Below are positions 25,668 to 35,645 of a stretch of 64,000 bases of DNA, one piece after another (position 1 is the first letter of the stretch; each line of letters begins with the position of its first letter). The translations under genes and the position numbers were made by a program. The stretch covers positions 11,377 to 75,376 of the forward strand of contig JAGOUY010000005.1 of NCBI GenBank assembly GCA_018061025.1, in the 5' to 3' direction. The stretch is from Patescibacteria group bacterium (lineage in GTDB: Bacteria; Patescibacteriota; Patescibacteriia; 2-12-FULL-60-25). A model generated the notes under the pieces. That model did not search any database. It was given only the letters and a program-made list of their open reading frames with translations, and had not been told where the DNA came from.

Positions 25668-25860
25668 TTGGATTGTGATATATAGGCGATGGGCCAGTCA
25701 GTATGCGAACTTTTTTCGTTACGCCCCTCGCATTCCGCCGGGAGCTCTTTGTGGCGGACCGGAGCCGAAACCTGCAGTCCGCAATCATGTGCAACGGTTT
25801 CGTCTCCTTGCTCAAACACGCGTAACGAAAAAAGTTCGCATACTGACTGGCCCTAGATGG
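25668..25860 (+). ncRNA. hairpin element copy 1 (conserved flanks, 34-bp perfect closing stem, 95-nt three-way-junction core)
   Basis: 5' flank is TTGGATTGTGATATATAGGCGAT. Stem 25691-25724 pairs perfectly with 25820-25853. 3' flank is TAGATGG. The core is homologous to copies 2 and 3, with compensatory changes. Confidence 0.6.
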
Positions 25861-25898: not shown

Positions 25899-26279
25899 TT
25901 ACGCCTGCCCCTTATATACAACTGACGTTTTTCGTCTTGCCTTAGGGTTTTTGCGGGGAGTTGGGGGGGCTTTGAGGGCTTCGGGGATTTTTTCGAAGGC
26001 GCGTTTTACGGAGGCGACGAGGGTTTGGTATTCGGTGGTGGTGGCTTCGGGTTTGGCGATGAAGAGGACATCCATCTTTAGGGGCCAAAGAGGGCGGGTG
26101 AGGTGGAGGGCTTCACGGAGGCGGCGTTTGACGCGGTTGCGGGCGACGGCGGTTTTGAAAATTTTAGCGCTCGCGACAAAGCCGATTTTGGTGGCCTCTT
26201 GGCTCTGGCGGAAGCGGAGGGTAAAAAATGGGCCAAAAACAACGCGCCCCCTCTGAGAGAGGAGGGCGAAGTCGCGCAT
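25899..26279 (-). CDS. rnpA: ribonuclease P protein component
   Basis: Start re-set to MRDFALLSQRG (ATG 26279-26277). KTAVARNRVKRRLREAL is the RnpA RNR motif. The track ORF runs on upstream through rpmH. Confidence 0.85.
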   Translation of the reverse strand: MRDFALLSQRGRVVFGPFFTLRFRQSQEATKIGFVASAKIFKTAVARNRVKRRLREALHLTRPLWPLKMDVLFIAKPEATTTEYQTLVASVKRAFEKIPEALKAPPTPRKNPKARRKTSVVYKGQA

Positions 26280-26313
26280 GCGGCGCAGGCGATCAGTGCG
26301 TGGGAGCACGGGA

Positions 26314-26478
26314 TTAACGCTTGTTGACCTTGGCCGTTTTAATGGCGATGCGTTTGCGGCCTTTGGCGCGACGGCGAGAGAGAACTTCGCGACCGTCAGC
26401 CGTCTGCATGCGAGCACGAAAACCGTGAACGCGGGCGCGTCGGCGCTTTTTGGGCTGGTAGGTTCGTTTGGTAGCCAT
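26314..26478 (-). CDS. rpmH: 50S ribosomal protein L34
   Basis: Below the track threshold. Reads [54 protein letters not shown]. Confidence 0.95.
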
Positions 26479-26557
26479 AAGAATGGGAGTACTCTAGGAT
26501 ATTTATTTGGTTTTGGCAAGGTCTCTCCCCGTAAAATCCCCATGGTTTTTGATAAGC

Positions 26558-26595
26558 TGTGGATAAACTGTTGGTTTTTCCACGGGTTATCCACA
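26558..26595. promoter_or_regulatory. DnaA boxes upstream of dnaA
   Basis: TGTGGATAA at 26558-26566 is the perfect reverse complement of TTATCCACA. TTTTCCACg is at 26576-84. TTATCCACA at 26587-26595 is a perfect match. Confidence 0.75.
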
Positions 26596-26642
26596 TGTTT
26601 GACAATGTGATGCAGGATTGAAAGTATCCAGCATATAAACCT

Positions 26643-28043
26643 ATGGACTTGCAAGCACTTTGGCAGTCTGCCCTCGGTGAGATCGAGCTCACCTTATCTA
26701 AGGCCAATTTTACGACCTGGTTTCGCAATACCTTCATTAGTTCGTATGAAAATGGACGGATCGTAGTGGCGGTGCCAAATACGTTTACAAAATCTTGGCT
26801 GGAGCGCAAATACCATGATGCAATTGCAAAAGCGTTGCGTTCGGCCTGTCCGCAACCGATCCGAGAAATCCACTATCGTGTCGAGGTACGCAATACAACG
26901 GTACTTCCGATTGAGCATTTAGCCGAACCGGCTCCTTCTCCCGGCATGGAACAGGAAATGAGCCAGGCTTCGGGGGCGGAGGGATCTTTTGAGCCGACCA
27001 CTCGTGCGGCAGAGCTAGGGCTTAACCCACGCTATACCTTTCCGCAGTTTATTGTGGGGAAAAATAATGAGTTGGCTCATGCGGCCTGTATGGCGGTGTC
27101 GGCAAAGCCGGGGCAAGCGTACAATCCTTTATTTATTTATGGAGGGGTTGGGATGGGAAAGACCCATTTACTGCAGGCGATCGGGCATCATGTCTGCCGG
27201 GACAACAATAATGCCAAGGTGCAGTATGTGACCTGTGAACGATTTACGAATGAGTTTATCCAAGCGGTACGGAGTGGGGCGGCGTCGGATTTTAAGGATC
27301 GTTACCGAACGGTGGATGTGCTTTTGATTGATGATATTCAGTTTTTGACGGGAAAAGAAGGGACGCAGGAGGAATTTTTTCATACGTTTAACACCCTACA
27401 CCAGAACAATAAACAGATCGTCATTGCGTCTGACCGCCCACCAAAGGATATCCAGACCCTAGAAAGCCGTCTTCAGTCGCGCTTTGAGTGGGGCATGATG
27501 ATTGATATCACCAAACCGGATTTTGAAACGCGGGTAGCCATTTTGGAGGCTAAGTCACGTGAGAAGAGTTACCCGCTTTCGACGGAAATCTTGCATATGA
27601 TGGCGGGAGCGATCCAGTCGAACATTCGTGAATTAGAAGGGGCGCTCAACAAGATCATTGCCTACCATCAGTTTAAAAATATCCAGCCTAGCTCGGGCTC
27701 TATCCAGCCTTTGCTCCAGAGCTTTACGCCGACCATTACAAAACGAACGGTGAGTCCACGCTTATTGATTGAAGCGGTACGCGGACACTATGACATCACG
27801 CATGAGCAAATCGTCGGCAAAAGTCGTGAACAACGGTTTGCCTTGCCACGCCAAATCGCGATGTATCTTCTACGCGAAGAGACAAAATGCTCTTTCCCCA
27901 CCATTGGGGATCATTTGGGCGGACGCGATCACACAACAGCCATGCATGCGTGCGAAAAGATTACACACCTTATCCAGAACGATACACAGGTGAAACAGGA
28001 TATCACGCTTATTTTAGAGCATCTCTATAACTCTGCGGCGTAG
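26643..28043 (+). CDS. dnaA: chromosomal replication initiator DnaA
   Basis: Walker A GGVGMGKTHLL and DDIQFL. C-terminal DNA-binding signature IGDHLGGRDHTTAMHA. Confidence 0.97.
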   Translation: MDLQALWQSALGEIELTLSKANFTTWFRNTFISSYENGRIVVAVPNTFTKSWLERKYHDAIAKALRSACPQPIREIHYRVEVRNTTVLPIEHLAEPAPSPGMEQEMSQASGAEGSFEPTTRAAELGLNPRYTFPQFIVGKNNELAHAACMAVSAKPGQAYNPLFIYGGVGMGKTHLLQAIGHHVCRDNNNAKVQYVTCERFTNEFIQAVRSGAASDFKDRYRTVDVLLIDDIQFLTGKEGTQEEFFHTFNTLHQNNKQIVIASDRPPKDIQTLESRLQSRFEWGMMIDITKPDFETRVAILEAKSREKSYPLSTEILHMMAGAIQSNIRELEGALNKIIAYHQFKNIQPSSGSIQPLLQSFTPTITKRTVSPRLLIEAVRGHYDITHEQIVGKSREQRFALPRQIAMYLLREETKCSFPTIGDHLGGRDHTTAMHACEKITHLIQNDTQVKQDITLILEHLYNSAA

Positions 28044-31315: not shown

Positions 31316-34231
31316 TTAATTTGTAATAATGAGGGGGATGGATGTCGTATCAGTTGAGGCGCTTTCGTCTTGAGGAAAGCCGATGACTTGGAGTTGGTAG
31401 CCGCCGGCGGGTGGACCAAGAGGGATTCGGATCGAAACTTCGGTCGCCGTTGGAAGGGTTTCGCTGCCAGCTAAGCGATCAGCTCCATCTGTCCCTACGA
31501 ATTTTATGTCGAGACGTCGATAGCGGGTTGGTTCCGTGATGTTGAGGATGACGGTTTTAGGAAATGAGGCGCGTGACCAGGTCTCGCTAGCGCTTGGGGA
31601 CGTGATGAGTAGGTTGAGTCCGGGATCACGCTCGGCGGTTAATTGGATGGAGGTATTCGTTTGTCCGTTATTACCTACGTCATCGAAGGCGATGATGGTA
31701 AGTTCGTGCGTACCCGTGTCGATGGTGTTTGGGACGCGGGCTTGGATGGTCCAAGGAGCGGCTGCGGACGCACCGAGCAGGGTTCCGCCGATGCGGGCTT
31801 CGACGCGGACGATGGGTCTGGCGCTGCTTACGACGGGAGAGATGCTGAAGCCGCGTGAAGAGATCGTTTGGCTATTTGATGGTTGCAGGATGCTAACTTG
31901 AGGGCGGTTGGTAGGAACGTGGACATCGTCGTATTCGGTCGGAGGCGTTGAGCTCGTGTTCCAATTGTTGCGTGTGACCCATGACTGTACACCTGCTTCC
32001 CAGTTCCCGAATTGTGGGTCGCTGGCAGGATTGGTCGGCGCAGGACCGAGTGGATCGTCTTTGTCGATGTAGTAGAGAATGTTATGCGCTTCGCGATAGG
32101 TGCGAGCTTCAATAAATTCTGGCGGGGTGAGATCGGTGGCGCGTTTGCCGCTGATCTTGTCGATGTTGATCGTGGTTGAGGTTGTATAACCCAGGAGTGC
32201 GCCTCTGTTCGTCGTTGGCGGTTCTGGAGGGGTGAAGCGTTCAACGGGCGTGTTTTGAGTGGCACGACGCATGTAGGCCTGCCAAATAGGGGCTGCGACG
32301 GCGGAGCTATCGGCGCCGCGCTTCATTTCTTTGTTATCGTTATTACCAACCCAGACGACGGTCACGAGACTTGGGGTATAGCCGACGGTCCAGGCGTCGT
32401 GATAGTTGTTGGTGGTGCCGGTTTTGGCAGCGACGGGCCGATCAGGAAGGGTCAGGCTATTACGCGCTCCGAAGATATAGCTACGTGCGTCGTTGTCGGA
32501 CAAGACGTTGGACATGAGGCGGGCGATCTGTGGCTCTATGACTTGCGTACCGGCAGGTTTTTGCCATTCTTCCAGAACGTTTCCGTCCGGATCTTCGATT
32601 TTTAGGATGGCGCTGGTTGGATAGAGCGTGCCTTCATTGGCGAAGGTTGCGAAGGCGGCCGCGTGCTCGATGGGTCTTACTTCTCCTCCGCCTAAGACAA
32701 GGGCAAGGCCGAAGCGAGAACGGTTTTTAAAGGTGGTGTAGCCAAGTGTTTCGGCAAAATCTAGAGCGCGGGAAATGCCGACGAGGTATAGGGTTTTCAC
32801 GGCAGGGATATTGAGTGAGCCCTGCAAGGCTTGGCGCATGGAGATGGGGCCGTTTTCTTTGAGGTTATAATTTTTTGGTTCGTAAGGGGTCGAGTCTGTT
32901 TTGAAGGTGGTGTTTACATCCCACAGGATTGTTTGAGGGAGGAAGCCTTTCATGAAGGCGGCGGCGTAGACGATGGGCTTGAAGCTCGAGCCTGGTTGGC
33001 GTGGGTTGAGCGTTACATTGAACTCGCCGTCGATTTCATCACTGAAAAAATCTTTGGAACCGACCATACTCAAAATCTGTCCATTTTTTGGATCGAGAGA
33101 GATGAGAGCGGCATTCGTGAATTGGTATTGTTTGCCGCGCGCCTCTACGCCTTTTTTAATTTCTTCTTCCGCGGCTTTTTGCTTGTCGTAGTCGAGGGTG
33201 GTGATGACTTTGTAGCCGCCCTCCGCGGTTTGTTTGATGCCGTATTTGTTTTCTAACATGTTGCGCACGTACATGGAGAAATGAGGGGCTTCGATGTTGC
33301 TGAATTTTTTCGGAATAATTTTTTTCAAGGTTTCCACCTGCTTGGCGGCTTCCGCTTCGTCTTTGGTGACGTAGCCTTGTTCGGCCATGAGGTCGAGGAT
33401 GTAGTGCTGACGTACGACAAGACGAGGACGGTTGTCGCCGCTTAGGCCGGTGCCGTAGGGAGAGAAGAAGTCTGGACGTTGAGGGATGGCGGCCAGGAGC
33501 GCGGCTTCATCGAGAGTAATATCTTGAACTCCTTTGCCGAAGAAGGTGCGGGCGGCTGACTCTACGCCGTAGATGGTAGAGCCGTACGGGATTTCGTTGA
33601 GGTAGAGCTGGAGGATTTGGTCTTTGCTGTATGCGCGTTCGAGTTGGAGGGAGAGGATAAATTCTTTGAGTTTGCGGACGGGTGAACGCTTGTTATCGAG
33701 CACCGCGTTTTTGATGAATTGTTGGGTGAGGGTGGAAGTTCCTTGTAGGCGTTGGAATTTGAGGACGCTCATGCCGACGGCACGGATCAAGCCTTTCCAA
33801 TAGATGCCATGGTGCTCATAAAAGCCTTTGTCTTCGATGGAGACGGTGGCGTGCTGCATGATTTTTGGGATTTTATCGATGGTCACGAGGGTGCGTTTTT
33901 CATCGCCGTGAACCTCGAAGAGAAGGTGGGTGCCGGTACGGTCGTAGATTTTGGTGGATTGGGCGATTTGGCGGCTGCCGAGGGTGTTGGGATCGGGGAG
34001 ATCGCGACTGATCCAGGCGGCGAAGATGGTCAGACTTAAAACACCGACGGCCCCGAGGCTTAAAAAGACGATGACAAGGGTACGAATCCGGCCGGGGGCG
34101 GAAAAAAAGCGTTTGAGCGCAGACGGGCGCTTGGGAGAGGCTCCGGAGGCGGACGTGGTTACGCGTTTGGTGAGAAATGGCATAGTTTTTTGGCTAAAAT
34201 AAGGCTTATTTCGTGCTTTACCCATTGACAA
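31316..34231 (-). CDS. class A penicillin-binding protein (transglycosylase + transpeptidase) with C-terminal Ig-like extension
   Basis: GT51 motifs EDKGFYEHHG and RKLKE. Transpeptidase motifs SSFKP, SLN and KTGTT. About 250 aa of beta-rich C-terminal tail. Confidence 0.93.
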   Translation of the reverse strand: MSMGKARNKPYFSQKTMPFLTKRVTTSASGASPKRPSALKRFFSAPGRIRTLVIVFLSLGAVGVLSLTIFAAWISRDLPDPNTLGSRQIAQSTKIYDRTGTHLLFEVHGDEKRTLVTIDKIPKIMQHATVSIEDKGFYEHHGIYWKGLIRAVGMSVLKFQRLQGTSTLTQQFIKNAVLDNKRSPVRKLKEFILSLQLERAYSKDQILQLYLNEIPYGSTIYGVESAARTFFGKGVQDITLDEAALLAAIPQRPDFFSPYGTGLSGDNRPRLVVRQHYILDLMAEQGYVTKDEAEAAKQVETLKKIIPKKFSNIEAPHFSMYVRNMLENKYGIKQTAEGGYKVITTLDYDKQKAAEEEIKKGVEARGKQYQFTNAALISLDPKNGQILSMVGSKDFFSDEIDGEFNVTLNPRQPGSSFKPIVYAAAFMKGFLPQTILWDVNTTFKTDSTPYEPKNYNLKENGPISMRQALQGSLNIPAVKTLYLVGISRALDFAETLGYTTFKNRSRFGLALVLGGGEVRPIEHAAAFATFANEGTLYPTSAILKIEDPDGNVLEEWQKPAGTQVIEPQIARLMSNVLSDNDARSYIFGARNSLTLPDRPVAAKTGTTNNYHDAWTVGYTPSLVTVVWVGNNDNKEMKRGADSSAVAAPIWQAYMRRATQNTPVERFTPPEPPTTNRGALLGYTTSTTINIDKISGKRATDLTPPEFIEARTYREAHNILYYIDKDDPLGPAPTNPASDPQFGNWEAGVQSWVTRNNWNTSSTPPTEYDDVHVPTNRPQVSILQPSNSQTISSRGFSISPVVSSARPIVRVEARIGGTLLGASAAAPWTIQARVPNTIDTGTHELTIIAFDDVGNNGQTNTSIQLTAERDPGLNLLITSPSASETWSRASFPKTVILNITEPTRYRRLDIKFVGTDGADRLAGSETLPTATEVSIRIPLGPPAGGYQLQVIGFPQDESASTDTTSIPLIITN

Positions 34232-34951: not shown

Positions 34952-34988
34952 AAAACCTCTCCTAATAAATGGAGGGGTTTTTGTTTGA
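34952..34988 (+). terminator. rho-independent terminator
   Basis: CCTCTCC taataaat GGAGGGG followed by TTTTTGTTT. Confidence 0.65.
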
Positions 34989-35012
34989 TGTGGATGCCCT
35001 TCGGGCGGAAAA

Positions 35013-35197
35013 ATATATAGGCGATGGGCTCCGTTTGTCCGTTGTTTTTCTCCCGACTGAACTCGCATTCCACCACGAGCTCTTTATGGTGGACCGGAGC
35101 CGATGCCTGCAACCGCAAATCGAGCGCAACGGCATCGTCTCCTTGCTCAGACAGCAGTCGGGAGAAAAACAACGGACAAACGGAGCCCTAGATGAGG
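35013..35197 (+). ncRNA. hairpin element copy 2
   Basis: 5' flank ATATATAGGCGAT. Stem 35026-35059 pairs perfectly with 35155-35188 (34 bp). 3' flank TAGATGAGG. Confidence 0.6.
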
Positions 35198-35292
35198 AGA
35201 AAAGGGGAAATAAGTACGGGGCTTCACGGATTATGGGGAGTTTGTTAGGATCATGACGCTTACAATTCGATTTGCGACGACGACGGGGCTGT

Positions 35293-35461: not shown

Positions 35462-35497
35462 AAAAAGATCACGGTTTATAGCCGTGTTTTTTTATTT

Positions 35498-35590
35498 CGT
35501 CATCCTTGACGTAGCGAAGCGAAGATCGAGGATCCATCCGATTCCGAGGTGATGGATCCTCGTGTCTCCGTATAACTTCGCACAAGGATG
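35498..35590. repeat. 93-nt composite inverted repeat
   Basis: CGTCATCCTTG pairs with CAAGGATGACG as the outer arms. GAGGATCCATC pairs with GATGGATCCTC as the inner arms. Confidence 0.8.
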
Positions 35591-35645
35591 ACGGGTAGTG
35601 GAGTTGTCGATTGTCTCAACAACCTCTTTTGCGTAGACTAGGGGT

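Follow-up and report, generated by a model that had tools for sequence, protein, structure and literature searches.

Mirrored sequence changes in the variable closing-stem arms of a genus-specific intergenic hairpin family of Patescibacteria

The Correia elements (CREE/NEMIS) of Neisseria carry promoters at their ends and a conserved core, and are transcribed into hairpins that are bound or cut by RNase III (PMC2649163). At the level of mutation, quasipalindrome events, in which one arm serves as the template for the other, 'universally perfect the palindromic sequence' (PMC6357072), and in yeast, template switching is stimulated by high transcription (PMC3820800). It is a long-standing question how long stems keep their perfect pairing in the face of random mutation, and template switching has been put forward as an answer, mostly from ancestral reconstructions of rRNA; the process has been proposed both to create and to maintain RNA hairpin stems (Monttinen and Loytynoja 2022, PMC8794818). 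Here we describe a hairpin family that provides dozens of paralogous, syntenic, and fast-changing 34-bp stems in several species, in which mirrored substitutions, transversions, and indels are directly countable. No description of this family was found in the literature searched.

The hairpin under study (copy 2) occupies positions 35026–35188 of the window, which is the whole stretch of 64,000 nucleotides that was analysed, and is 163 nt long, with two 34-nt arms (complementarity, 100%) placed around a core of 95 nt (Table 1). The 5′ arm begins with GGGCTC (positions 1–6), followed by a variable segment (positions 7–19), a T-run (positions 20–24; 35045–35049), and a pyrimidine-rich inner part, and the A-run of the 3′ arm (35165–35169) sits within the purine tract GGGAGAAAAA. 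The two sub-hairpins of the core are formed by CCACCA/TGGTGG and CGATGCC/GGCATCG, and their helices show double-sided changes among the copies. Both flanks are conserved; TAGGCGATGGGC of the 5′ flank and CCTAGAT at the 3′ flank are without variation across an alignment of 29 copies, and a G/A-rich tail is found in every copy. The RNA folding energy of the element is -99.6 kcal/mol, as compared with -47.7 ± 4.4 kcal/mol for shuffled sequences (z = -11.8), and the stability of the fold is thus far above chance.

Table 1. Features of the hairpin at 35026–35188, its relatives in the window, and the sites compared between species
Feature	Position	Strand	Description
5′ flank, conserved	35014–35025	+	TATATA and GGCGAT; -10-like, as a motif match only
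5′ arm of closing stem	35026–35059	+	34 nt, 100% complementary to the 3′ arm
Core, conserved	35060–35154	+	about 95 nt; two sub-hairpins at the junction in the MFE fold
3′ arm of closing stem	35155–35188	+	34 nt, exact reverse complement of the 5′ arm
3′ flank, conserved	35189–35215	+	TAGATG, then purine-rich tail (GAGGAGAAAAGGGGAAA)
Copy 1, type A	25691–25853	+	34-bp arms, 100% paired, locus-specific sequence; convergent with rnpA
Copy 3, type A	41489–41652	+	35 perfect pairs; between polA and a 280-aa ORF
Copy 4, type B	43152–43271	+	30-bp arms, 100% paired; 60-nt core unrelated to type A
parS palindromes, examples	44167–44202, 44217–44248, 44596–44631, 44790–44829
Type C in place of type A	G000 C9:64973	minus	compared with G003 L046 and G007 L073
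Further sites with type C in place of type A	G000 C15:32291, C8:100422

The measurements on which the original prediction was built were reproduced for the copies in the window. Lengths of 163, 163, and 164 nt with arms of 34, 34, and 35 nt had been given for copies 1, 2, and 3, and our re-measurement agrees with them; the perfect stem extends over 133 bp in the four window copies with zero mismatches, as had been claimed. The T-run, said to hold a fixed position in the arm, begins at position 21, 20, and 20 in copies 1, 2, and 3, and the A-run said to replace it in copy 4 is found as AAAAA-GGAG at arm positions 22–30 (AAAAA, 22–26), the tract being flipped onto the other strand. Copy 1 adjoins the downstream end of rnpA (minus strand) and has dnaA (26643–28043, plus strand) as a neighbour, in the region 25899–28043, and the window spans this dnaA region as well as a parS array. 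A second repeat family, made up of GTCATCCTTG...GGATCCATC...CAAGGATGAC modules, adjoins the hairpins at 35490–35600 and 41320–41460 and occurs in both orientations; the intergenic regions around the hairpins are mosaics of several repeat modules.

The genome to which the window belongs (G000; 1.316 Mb in 18 contigs, 96.7% complete) contains about 45 copies in all, which are single and dispersed over all large contigs without tandem arrays. They comprise 29 complete copies of type A, defined by the CTCGCATTCC...CTCCTTGCTCAGACA core, further copies truncated at contig ends, about seven copies of type B, and six of type C. Assemblies often break inside the elements (at the end of C7, the start of C14, and the end of C18 in G000, and in several contigs of G001 and G007), so that copy numbers are underestimated and some ortholog comparisons are shortened. 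The arms are 33–35 bp long in type A, in which they enclose a core of 91–98 nt, and 28–30 bp in type B; type C has an outer stem of 18–20 bp in G000 and G001, beyond which, as read from the sequences, lie an internal loop rich in A/T and another short helix. In the genome G006, type C has 28–32 pairs, and the other types have 23–26 or 34 bp. Further element types of 122–126 nt, found in a sister genome, share the design of the outer arms and have different cores. A miniature at G000 C7:77930–77990 has the normal flanks, ATAGGCGATG ... CCTAGATGGGAG, around only about 21 nt with a stem of about 8 bp, and might be what a deletion left behind or a nearly empty site.

From the 29 type-A copies of G000, a covariance model was built and searched in the genus and in related genera; it gave matches in all eight genomes of the genus, whereas no match was obtained in 33 genomes from other genera within that family and class. 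Similarly, the counts of the flank 13-mer ATAGGCGATGGGC are 33 in G000 and 13–15 in three sister species, and are at chance level (at most one occurrence) in 113 genomes of 32 other genera. Scanning of 185,579 species genomes with 20-mers produced matches in three MAGs only, one labelled Patescibacteria and two Gammaproteobacteria. The two sister MAGs with loci L152–L171 (records CAZTQP01 and CAZIQG01) are labelled 'uncultured Gammaproteobacteria bacterium', yet they group in the genus of the Patescibacteria-labelled MAG, and the label of these two records is probably wrong. By these sequence searches, the hairpin family is confined to one genus. In Rfam, the window gives only tRNAs at the gathering score, and nothing is detected up to E = 10 in 34960–35260. 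The elements, which have promoter-like flanks and lie beside housekeeping genes, are a previously undescribed, genus-specific part of the intergenic DNA of Patescibacteria.

For measurement of the arms across the family, 64 type-A elements from five genomes (species) were anchored by the flank motifs alone, a procedure without bias towards paired stems. The arms are 33–35 bp long in 59 of these copies, and a run of 4–7 T begins at arm position 19–21 in 58 of them. The stem is perfect in 39 of the 64 copies and has at least one defect in the remaining 39%; altogether, 47 mismatches and 5 gaps are found among 2190 pair cells (mismatched, 2.1%). The 64 copies hold 62 distinct arm sequences. Variable arm lengths, frequent mismatches, and absence of the tract, which would speak against the original prediction, were not the rule when these copies were tabulated. 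The fixed arm length therein proposed stands within type A, but not as a universal ruler, because the length differs between types. Also, the 'complete sequence turnover' attributed to the arms was an overstatement; positions 1–6 (GGGCTC) and 20–25 (T-run) are near-invariant, positions 20–29 are 84–100% pyrimidine, and only positions 7–19 and 26–34 vary (entropy, 1.2–1.9 bits). The islands of GGGCTC, T-run, and pyrimidine tract are mismatch-poor while the neighbouring positions vary.

Across the 29 aligned copies, both sides have changed in 27 of the 34 pairs of the closing stem, and 98.4% of the cells are paired. The covariation score of 0.554 was reached by none of 500 shuffles, and slid registers gave at most 0.081. 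Many of the stem columns hold all four Watson–Crick pair types, with frequent GC/CG flips, and one-sided (wobble) states are nearly absent. The 47 mismatches of the larger set are divided into 13 G.T, 15 A.C, and 19 of other or transversion type, G.T and A.C being indistinguishable in number (binomial p = 0.85). The orientation of the core relative to the flanks is constant in all but one of about 65 flank-anchored type-A copies. The sole case is a 167-nt element in G003 (L053, contig C12), in which the type-A core is reverse-complemented between normally oriented flanks, as expected from a recombinational flip between inverted arms.

Most elements are placed by their flanking sequence at syntenic sites in sister species, which allowed the two arms to be followed at individual loci. 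By gapped alignment, the 17 ortholog pairs with arm identity of at least 70%, which are phylogenetically non-independent, gave 64 mirrored substitutions (35 transversions, 55%) and 19 mirrored indels against 32 differences in one arm; the two arms thus change together at orthologous loci, the point on which the original prediction had suggested a check. Restricted to the 11 pairs whose arm identity is at least about 0.82, the count was 22 mirrored substitutions (transversions, 13) and 10 mirrored indels, with 15 differences in a single arm. For example, at C10:42375, T15C is present in both arms in G003, a one-base deletion in the T-run is mirrored in the A-run in G001, and two changes are unmirrored in G000; at C3:7594, the transversion C12G is mirrored, and mirroring extends to several substitutions and indels at C15:40603 and C8:94097. 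In loci that keep their own arms, the mirrored divergence between species amounts to 6–17% of arm positions, which is of similar order to the flank divergence of 7–23%. The locus-specific arms at these loci have not clearly diverged more than the flanks, which are mostly coding and not neutral. Altogether, these alignments show that the closing-stem arms are homologous between copies, evolve fast, and are kept Watson–Crick paired by mirror-image changes in both arms.

At several other syntenic sites, the hairpins differ in their entirety, in the core as well as in the arms. Even the type is switched at ortholog sites, with type C in G000 against type A in G003 and G007 (Table 1), and the breakpoints fall at the stem base (GGGC.../...GCCC). 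The location of these breakpoints between the conserved flanks indicates that the hairpin is exchanged as a cassette. Arms and cores are also reassorted among paralogues of G000; one pair has identical cores and seven arm differences, and another has near-identical arms and different cores. The compared loci show a second process beside mirrored change, in which another copy supplies the entire hairpin or only its core and the breakpoints fall at conserved flanks and junctions.

We consider it fairly probable (about 0.6) that one arm is copied from the other by template switching in replication, alongside the wholesale replacement of cassettes, and that selection holds the conserved islands only. 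In such a mechanism, the nascent strand would switch its template within the palindrome during replication and copy one arm from the other (quasipalindrome template switching), and a new mutation in one arm would soon be erased or mirrored, regardless of the type of mutation. Selection would hold only the islands, namely GGGCTC, the T/A run some 20 bp into the stem, and the pyrimidine/purine tract, and would also keep the arm length within ±1 per type. The element itself probably gives rise to a structured RNA or leader by transcription from its -10 box, and the A/U tract some 20 bp into the stem may be a site of processing or binding. According to the theory of compensatory substitution for arms that mutate independently, tolerated mismatches would outnumber exact compensations many-fold, and mismatches under strong selection would slow compensated substitution to far below the neutral rate. 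The rarity of mismatches (2.1%), combined with the substantial mirrored divergence (6–17%), points to correlated double changes rather than to independent mutations under selection. That transversions, indels, and wobble-type changes all behave alike suggests copying at the DNA level, and the lack of enrichment of G.T over A.C mismatches counts against selection for stability of an RNA helix, in which G.U would be a tolerated intermediate. As points against template switching, the T-run, GGGCTC, and the near-constant arm length show that selection acts on the stem too, and strong selection for a strictly Watson–Crick duplex may be involved; the comparative nature of the evidence, the long spacer, and an arm divergence that does not clearly exceed that of the flanks also weigh against it.

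The enzyme set of the genome and other palindromes in the window also bear on arm-to-arm copying. MutS is absent from the 96.7% complete G000 (no MutS domain V detectable), and no ExoI was detected there. The absence of MutS makes it unlikely that the stems are perfected through mismatch repair of a hairpin heteroduplex. ExoVII is a suppressor of quasipalindrome events in E. coli; this enzyme is encoded in G000, which we counted against template switching. The window contains 13 identical parS cores (TGTTTCACGTGAAACA) at 43548–44991, five of which are located at the centre of perfect palindromes of 32–40 bp, extended by 8–12 bp on each side with a unique sequence in each case (probability by chance, about 2e-4; examples in Table 1). 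We know of no requirement of ParB for such extended palindromes. The perfecting of the parS sites and the absence of MutS are in keeping with a trait of the lineage and not just of this hairpin family. Perfect stems of at least 16 bp with a small loop occur at 27 per Mb in G000; the two sister genera compared have 5 and 15 per Mb, and this 2–5 fold excess of long perfect stems is suggestive, modest, and not decisive.

Selection on an RNA would provide another explanation, in which a dsRNA-specific factor (RNase III or a ruler protein) requires perfect pairing over a set length and an A/U tract at about 20 bp from the base, and compensatory mutations become fixed; we regard this as unlikely. 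In most copies, an extended -10 motif (TGnTATATA) is located 6 nt before the stem and is followed by GGCGAT, the full box being missing from about a quarter of the copies, and the transcription start predicted from this -10-like box, as a motif only, would coincide with the first G of the stem. The gene for RNase III (rnc) is present in G000, for which the 34-bp duplex would be a putative substrate, and covariation in the core sub-helices, conservation of the T-run and arm length amid variable neighbours, and the core orientation kept in all but one of the approximately 65 flank-anchored copies are likewise consistent with a functional RNA. RNase III, however, tolerates G.U pairs and mismatches, and hence would not alone enforce strict Watson–Crick pairing. 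The ratio of 13 G.U to 15 A.C mismatches has an estimated P of about 0.001 under an assumed 3:1 preference for wobble pairs, 55% of the mirrored substitutions are transversions and 19 indels are mirrored, and mirrored substitutions accumulate at about the rate of flank divergence though mismatches are rare; furthermore, the arm length varies by type, and parS palindromes, which have no RNA role, have been perfected too. Between the two alternatives offered in the original prediction, the fold-back or gene-conversion process fits best with the mirrored substitutions and indels at orthologs, the absence of a G.U preference, and the perfecting at parS; the ruler protein or RNase III-like substrate appears unneeded and weakly supported, in that RNase III is present but the arm length is type-specific. 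Quite improbable, in our estimation, is a combined scheme in which the cassettes would be a new class of promoter-equipped structured-RNA genes with the perfect but changing closing stem as a functional design, the outer duplex of 19–20 bp, which ends at the fixed A/U tract, would be a measured RNase III-type site that releases the core RNA and a locus-specific small duplex, and a high rate of template switching in the lineage would keep the duplex perfect yet diversifying. As for other roles of the flanks and core, a role simply as promoter for the next gene was rejected, with 18 copies co-directional with the downstream gene versus 11 convergent by crude ORF calls and copy 1 convergent with rnpA; so were a small peptide in the type-B core, whose frame, judged by eye, is not maintained between copies, and the ATG of TAGATG as a start codon, which opens the downstream ORF in only one of 18 co-directional cases. 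An intrinsic terminator was also dismissed, since no U-run is present behind the stem (TAGATG and a purine tract are found instead) and the terminator scan makes no call. Inspection of the sequence gave no support for a triplex or alternative pairing of the purine tail with the stem tract.

The stems might otherwise be born perfect, by a fold-back (snap-back) step in MITE-like transposition, so that perfect copies are young and mismatched ones old and no correction takes place. Consistent with such an origin are the many copies per genome (about 45 in G000), the frequent contig breaks at copies, the cassettes and even types that differ at orthologous sites, and the one copy with an inverted core. 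It is nonetheless highly improbable, because most copies are syntenic across species, keep locus-specific arm motifs, and have acquired mirrored point changes in place; no Y1 transposase is encoded, no target-site duplication was noticed in an unsystematic look, and replacement breakpoints at the conserved flanks are expected of gene conversion, not of fresh insertion. At the orthologous sites examined, another cassette type is present rather than an empty site. We see only an extremely small chance that the variable segment of the arm is a spacer-like guide, which is released as a small duplex and matches phage, plasmid, or host DNA. The diversity of the arms (62 distinct sequences in 64 copies) and the outer 19-bp duplex, which ends at the A/U tract and resembles a measured small-RNA duplex, would suit this idea, but the guide or target relationship that the original prediction had raised found no support in the own genome or in phage or plasmid records. 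The longest exact match of an arm elsewhere in the genome is 16 nt, about the chance expectation; matches of at least 12 nt, the range covered by the shuffled control, were obtained with 29 of 29 real arms and with a mean of 26.4 shuffled arms. Arm similarities of 12–17 nt at 31651–31672 and 38519–38543 of the window were taken as chance, since shuffled arms match about as often. No match was found between 34 arms of G000 and 50,697 phage records, or between the element and 72,556 plasmid records. In addition, the arms at orthologous loci drift by point changes and not by block acquisition, and the copies are dispersed and unarrayed, without an associated effector gene.

If arm-to-arm copying by template switching is the true explanation, the hairpin family would be a clear natural case of a known mutational process, not a new guide or ruler system. 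Strong covariation such as that observed here (27 of 34 pairs changed on both sides) need not prove an RNA function, because it can also be yielded by a process at the DNA level. The dozens of stems with countable mirrored changes and the similar perfecting at unrelated palindromes in a genome that lacks MutS make the idea of template switching testable.

In comparison with known repeat systems, the hairpin family resembles the Correia elements as small intergenic inverted-repeat elements (about 100–160 bp) with a conserved core and a copy content varying between strains. The two have no common sequence, and the inverted repeats of Correia elements are conserved in sequence, whereas the arms are here the most variable part and the core and flanks are conserved. 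REP/REPIN sequences are likewise abundant intergenic palindromes that form long hairpins and still pair in diverged copies; REPs, however, consist of a short conserved head and imperfect palindromes in inverted pairs, in contrast to the single variable stem of 33–35 bp with a large structured core. PF01797 (Y1, RAYT/IS200-type transposase) has no match in the 96.7% complete G000, while control genomes respond, and membership in the REP/REPIN-RAYT system was rejected owing to the lack of both a Y1 transposase and a GTAG-type REP head. The palindromic elements of Rickettsia (RPE), pneumococcal BOX, and enterobacterial ERIC are also lineage-restricted, modular, structured repeats of small or compact genomes, but they have imperfect stems and conserved arm sequences, and RPEs often lie inside genes. 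To our knowledge, no RPE, BOX, or ERIC element has variable yet perfectly mirrored arms. The attC sites of integrons are similar in being palindromes that are recognised by structure rather than sequence, with conserved length and exchangeable cassettes. Their stems contain obligatory extrahelical bases and bulges, and they flank gene cassettes next to an integrase, whereas the present stems are perfect, the hairpin itself is the cassette, and no link to an integrase was seen. Also different are TIGR-Tas and CRISPR-like arrays, which are tandem repeat-spacer units next to an effector, as opposed to single dispersed copies.

With regard to mechanism, the likeness is to quasipalindrome template switching (the Ripley model and the QP reporters of the Lovett laboratory, PMC6357072), in which one arm of an inverted repeat templates its partner and the palindrome is perfected; this process accounts for multi-base, non-wobble 'compensatory' changes and for mirrored indels. 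The present hairpins differ from laboratory quasipalindromes in having arms of about 34 bp and a long, folded spacer of about 95 nt, and from the reporters in that the process would have acted repeatedly on dozens of paralogues over species-level time, with the events inferred by comparison. Correia elements are thus the closest system in anatomy, and quasipalindrome template switching is the match in mechanism, while the variable yet perfectly mirrored arms set the hairpin family apart from Correia, REPIN, BOX, and RPE elements.
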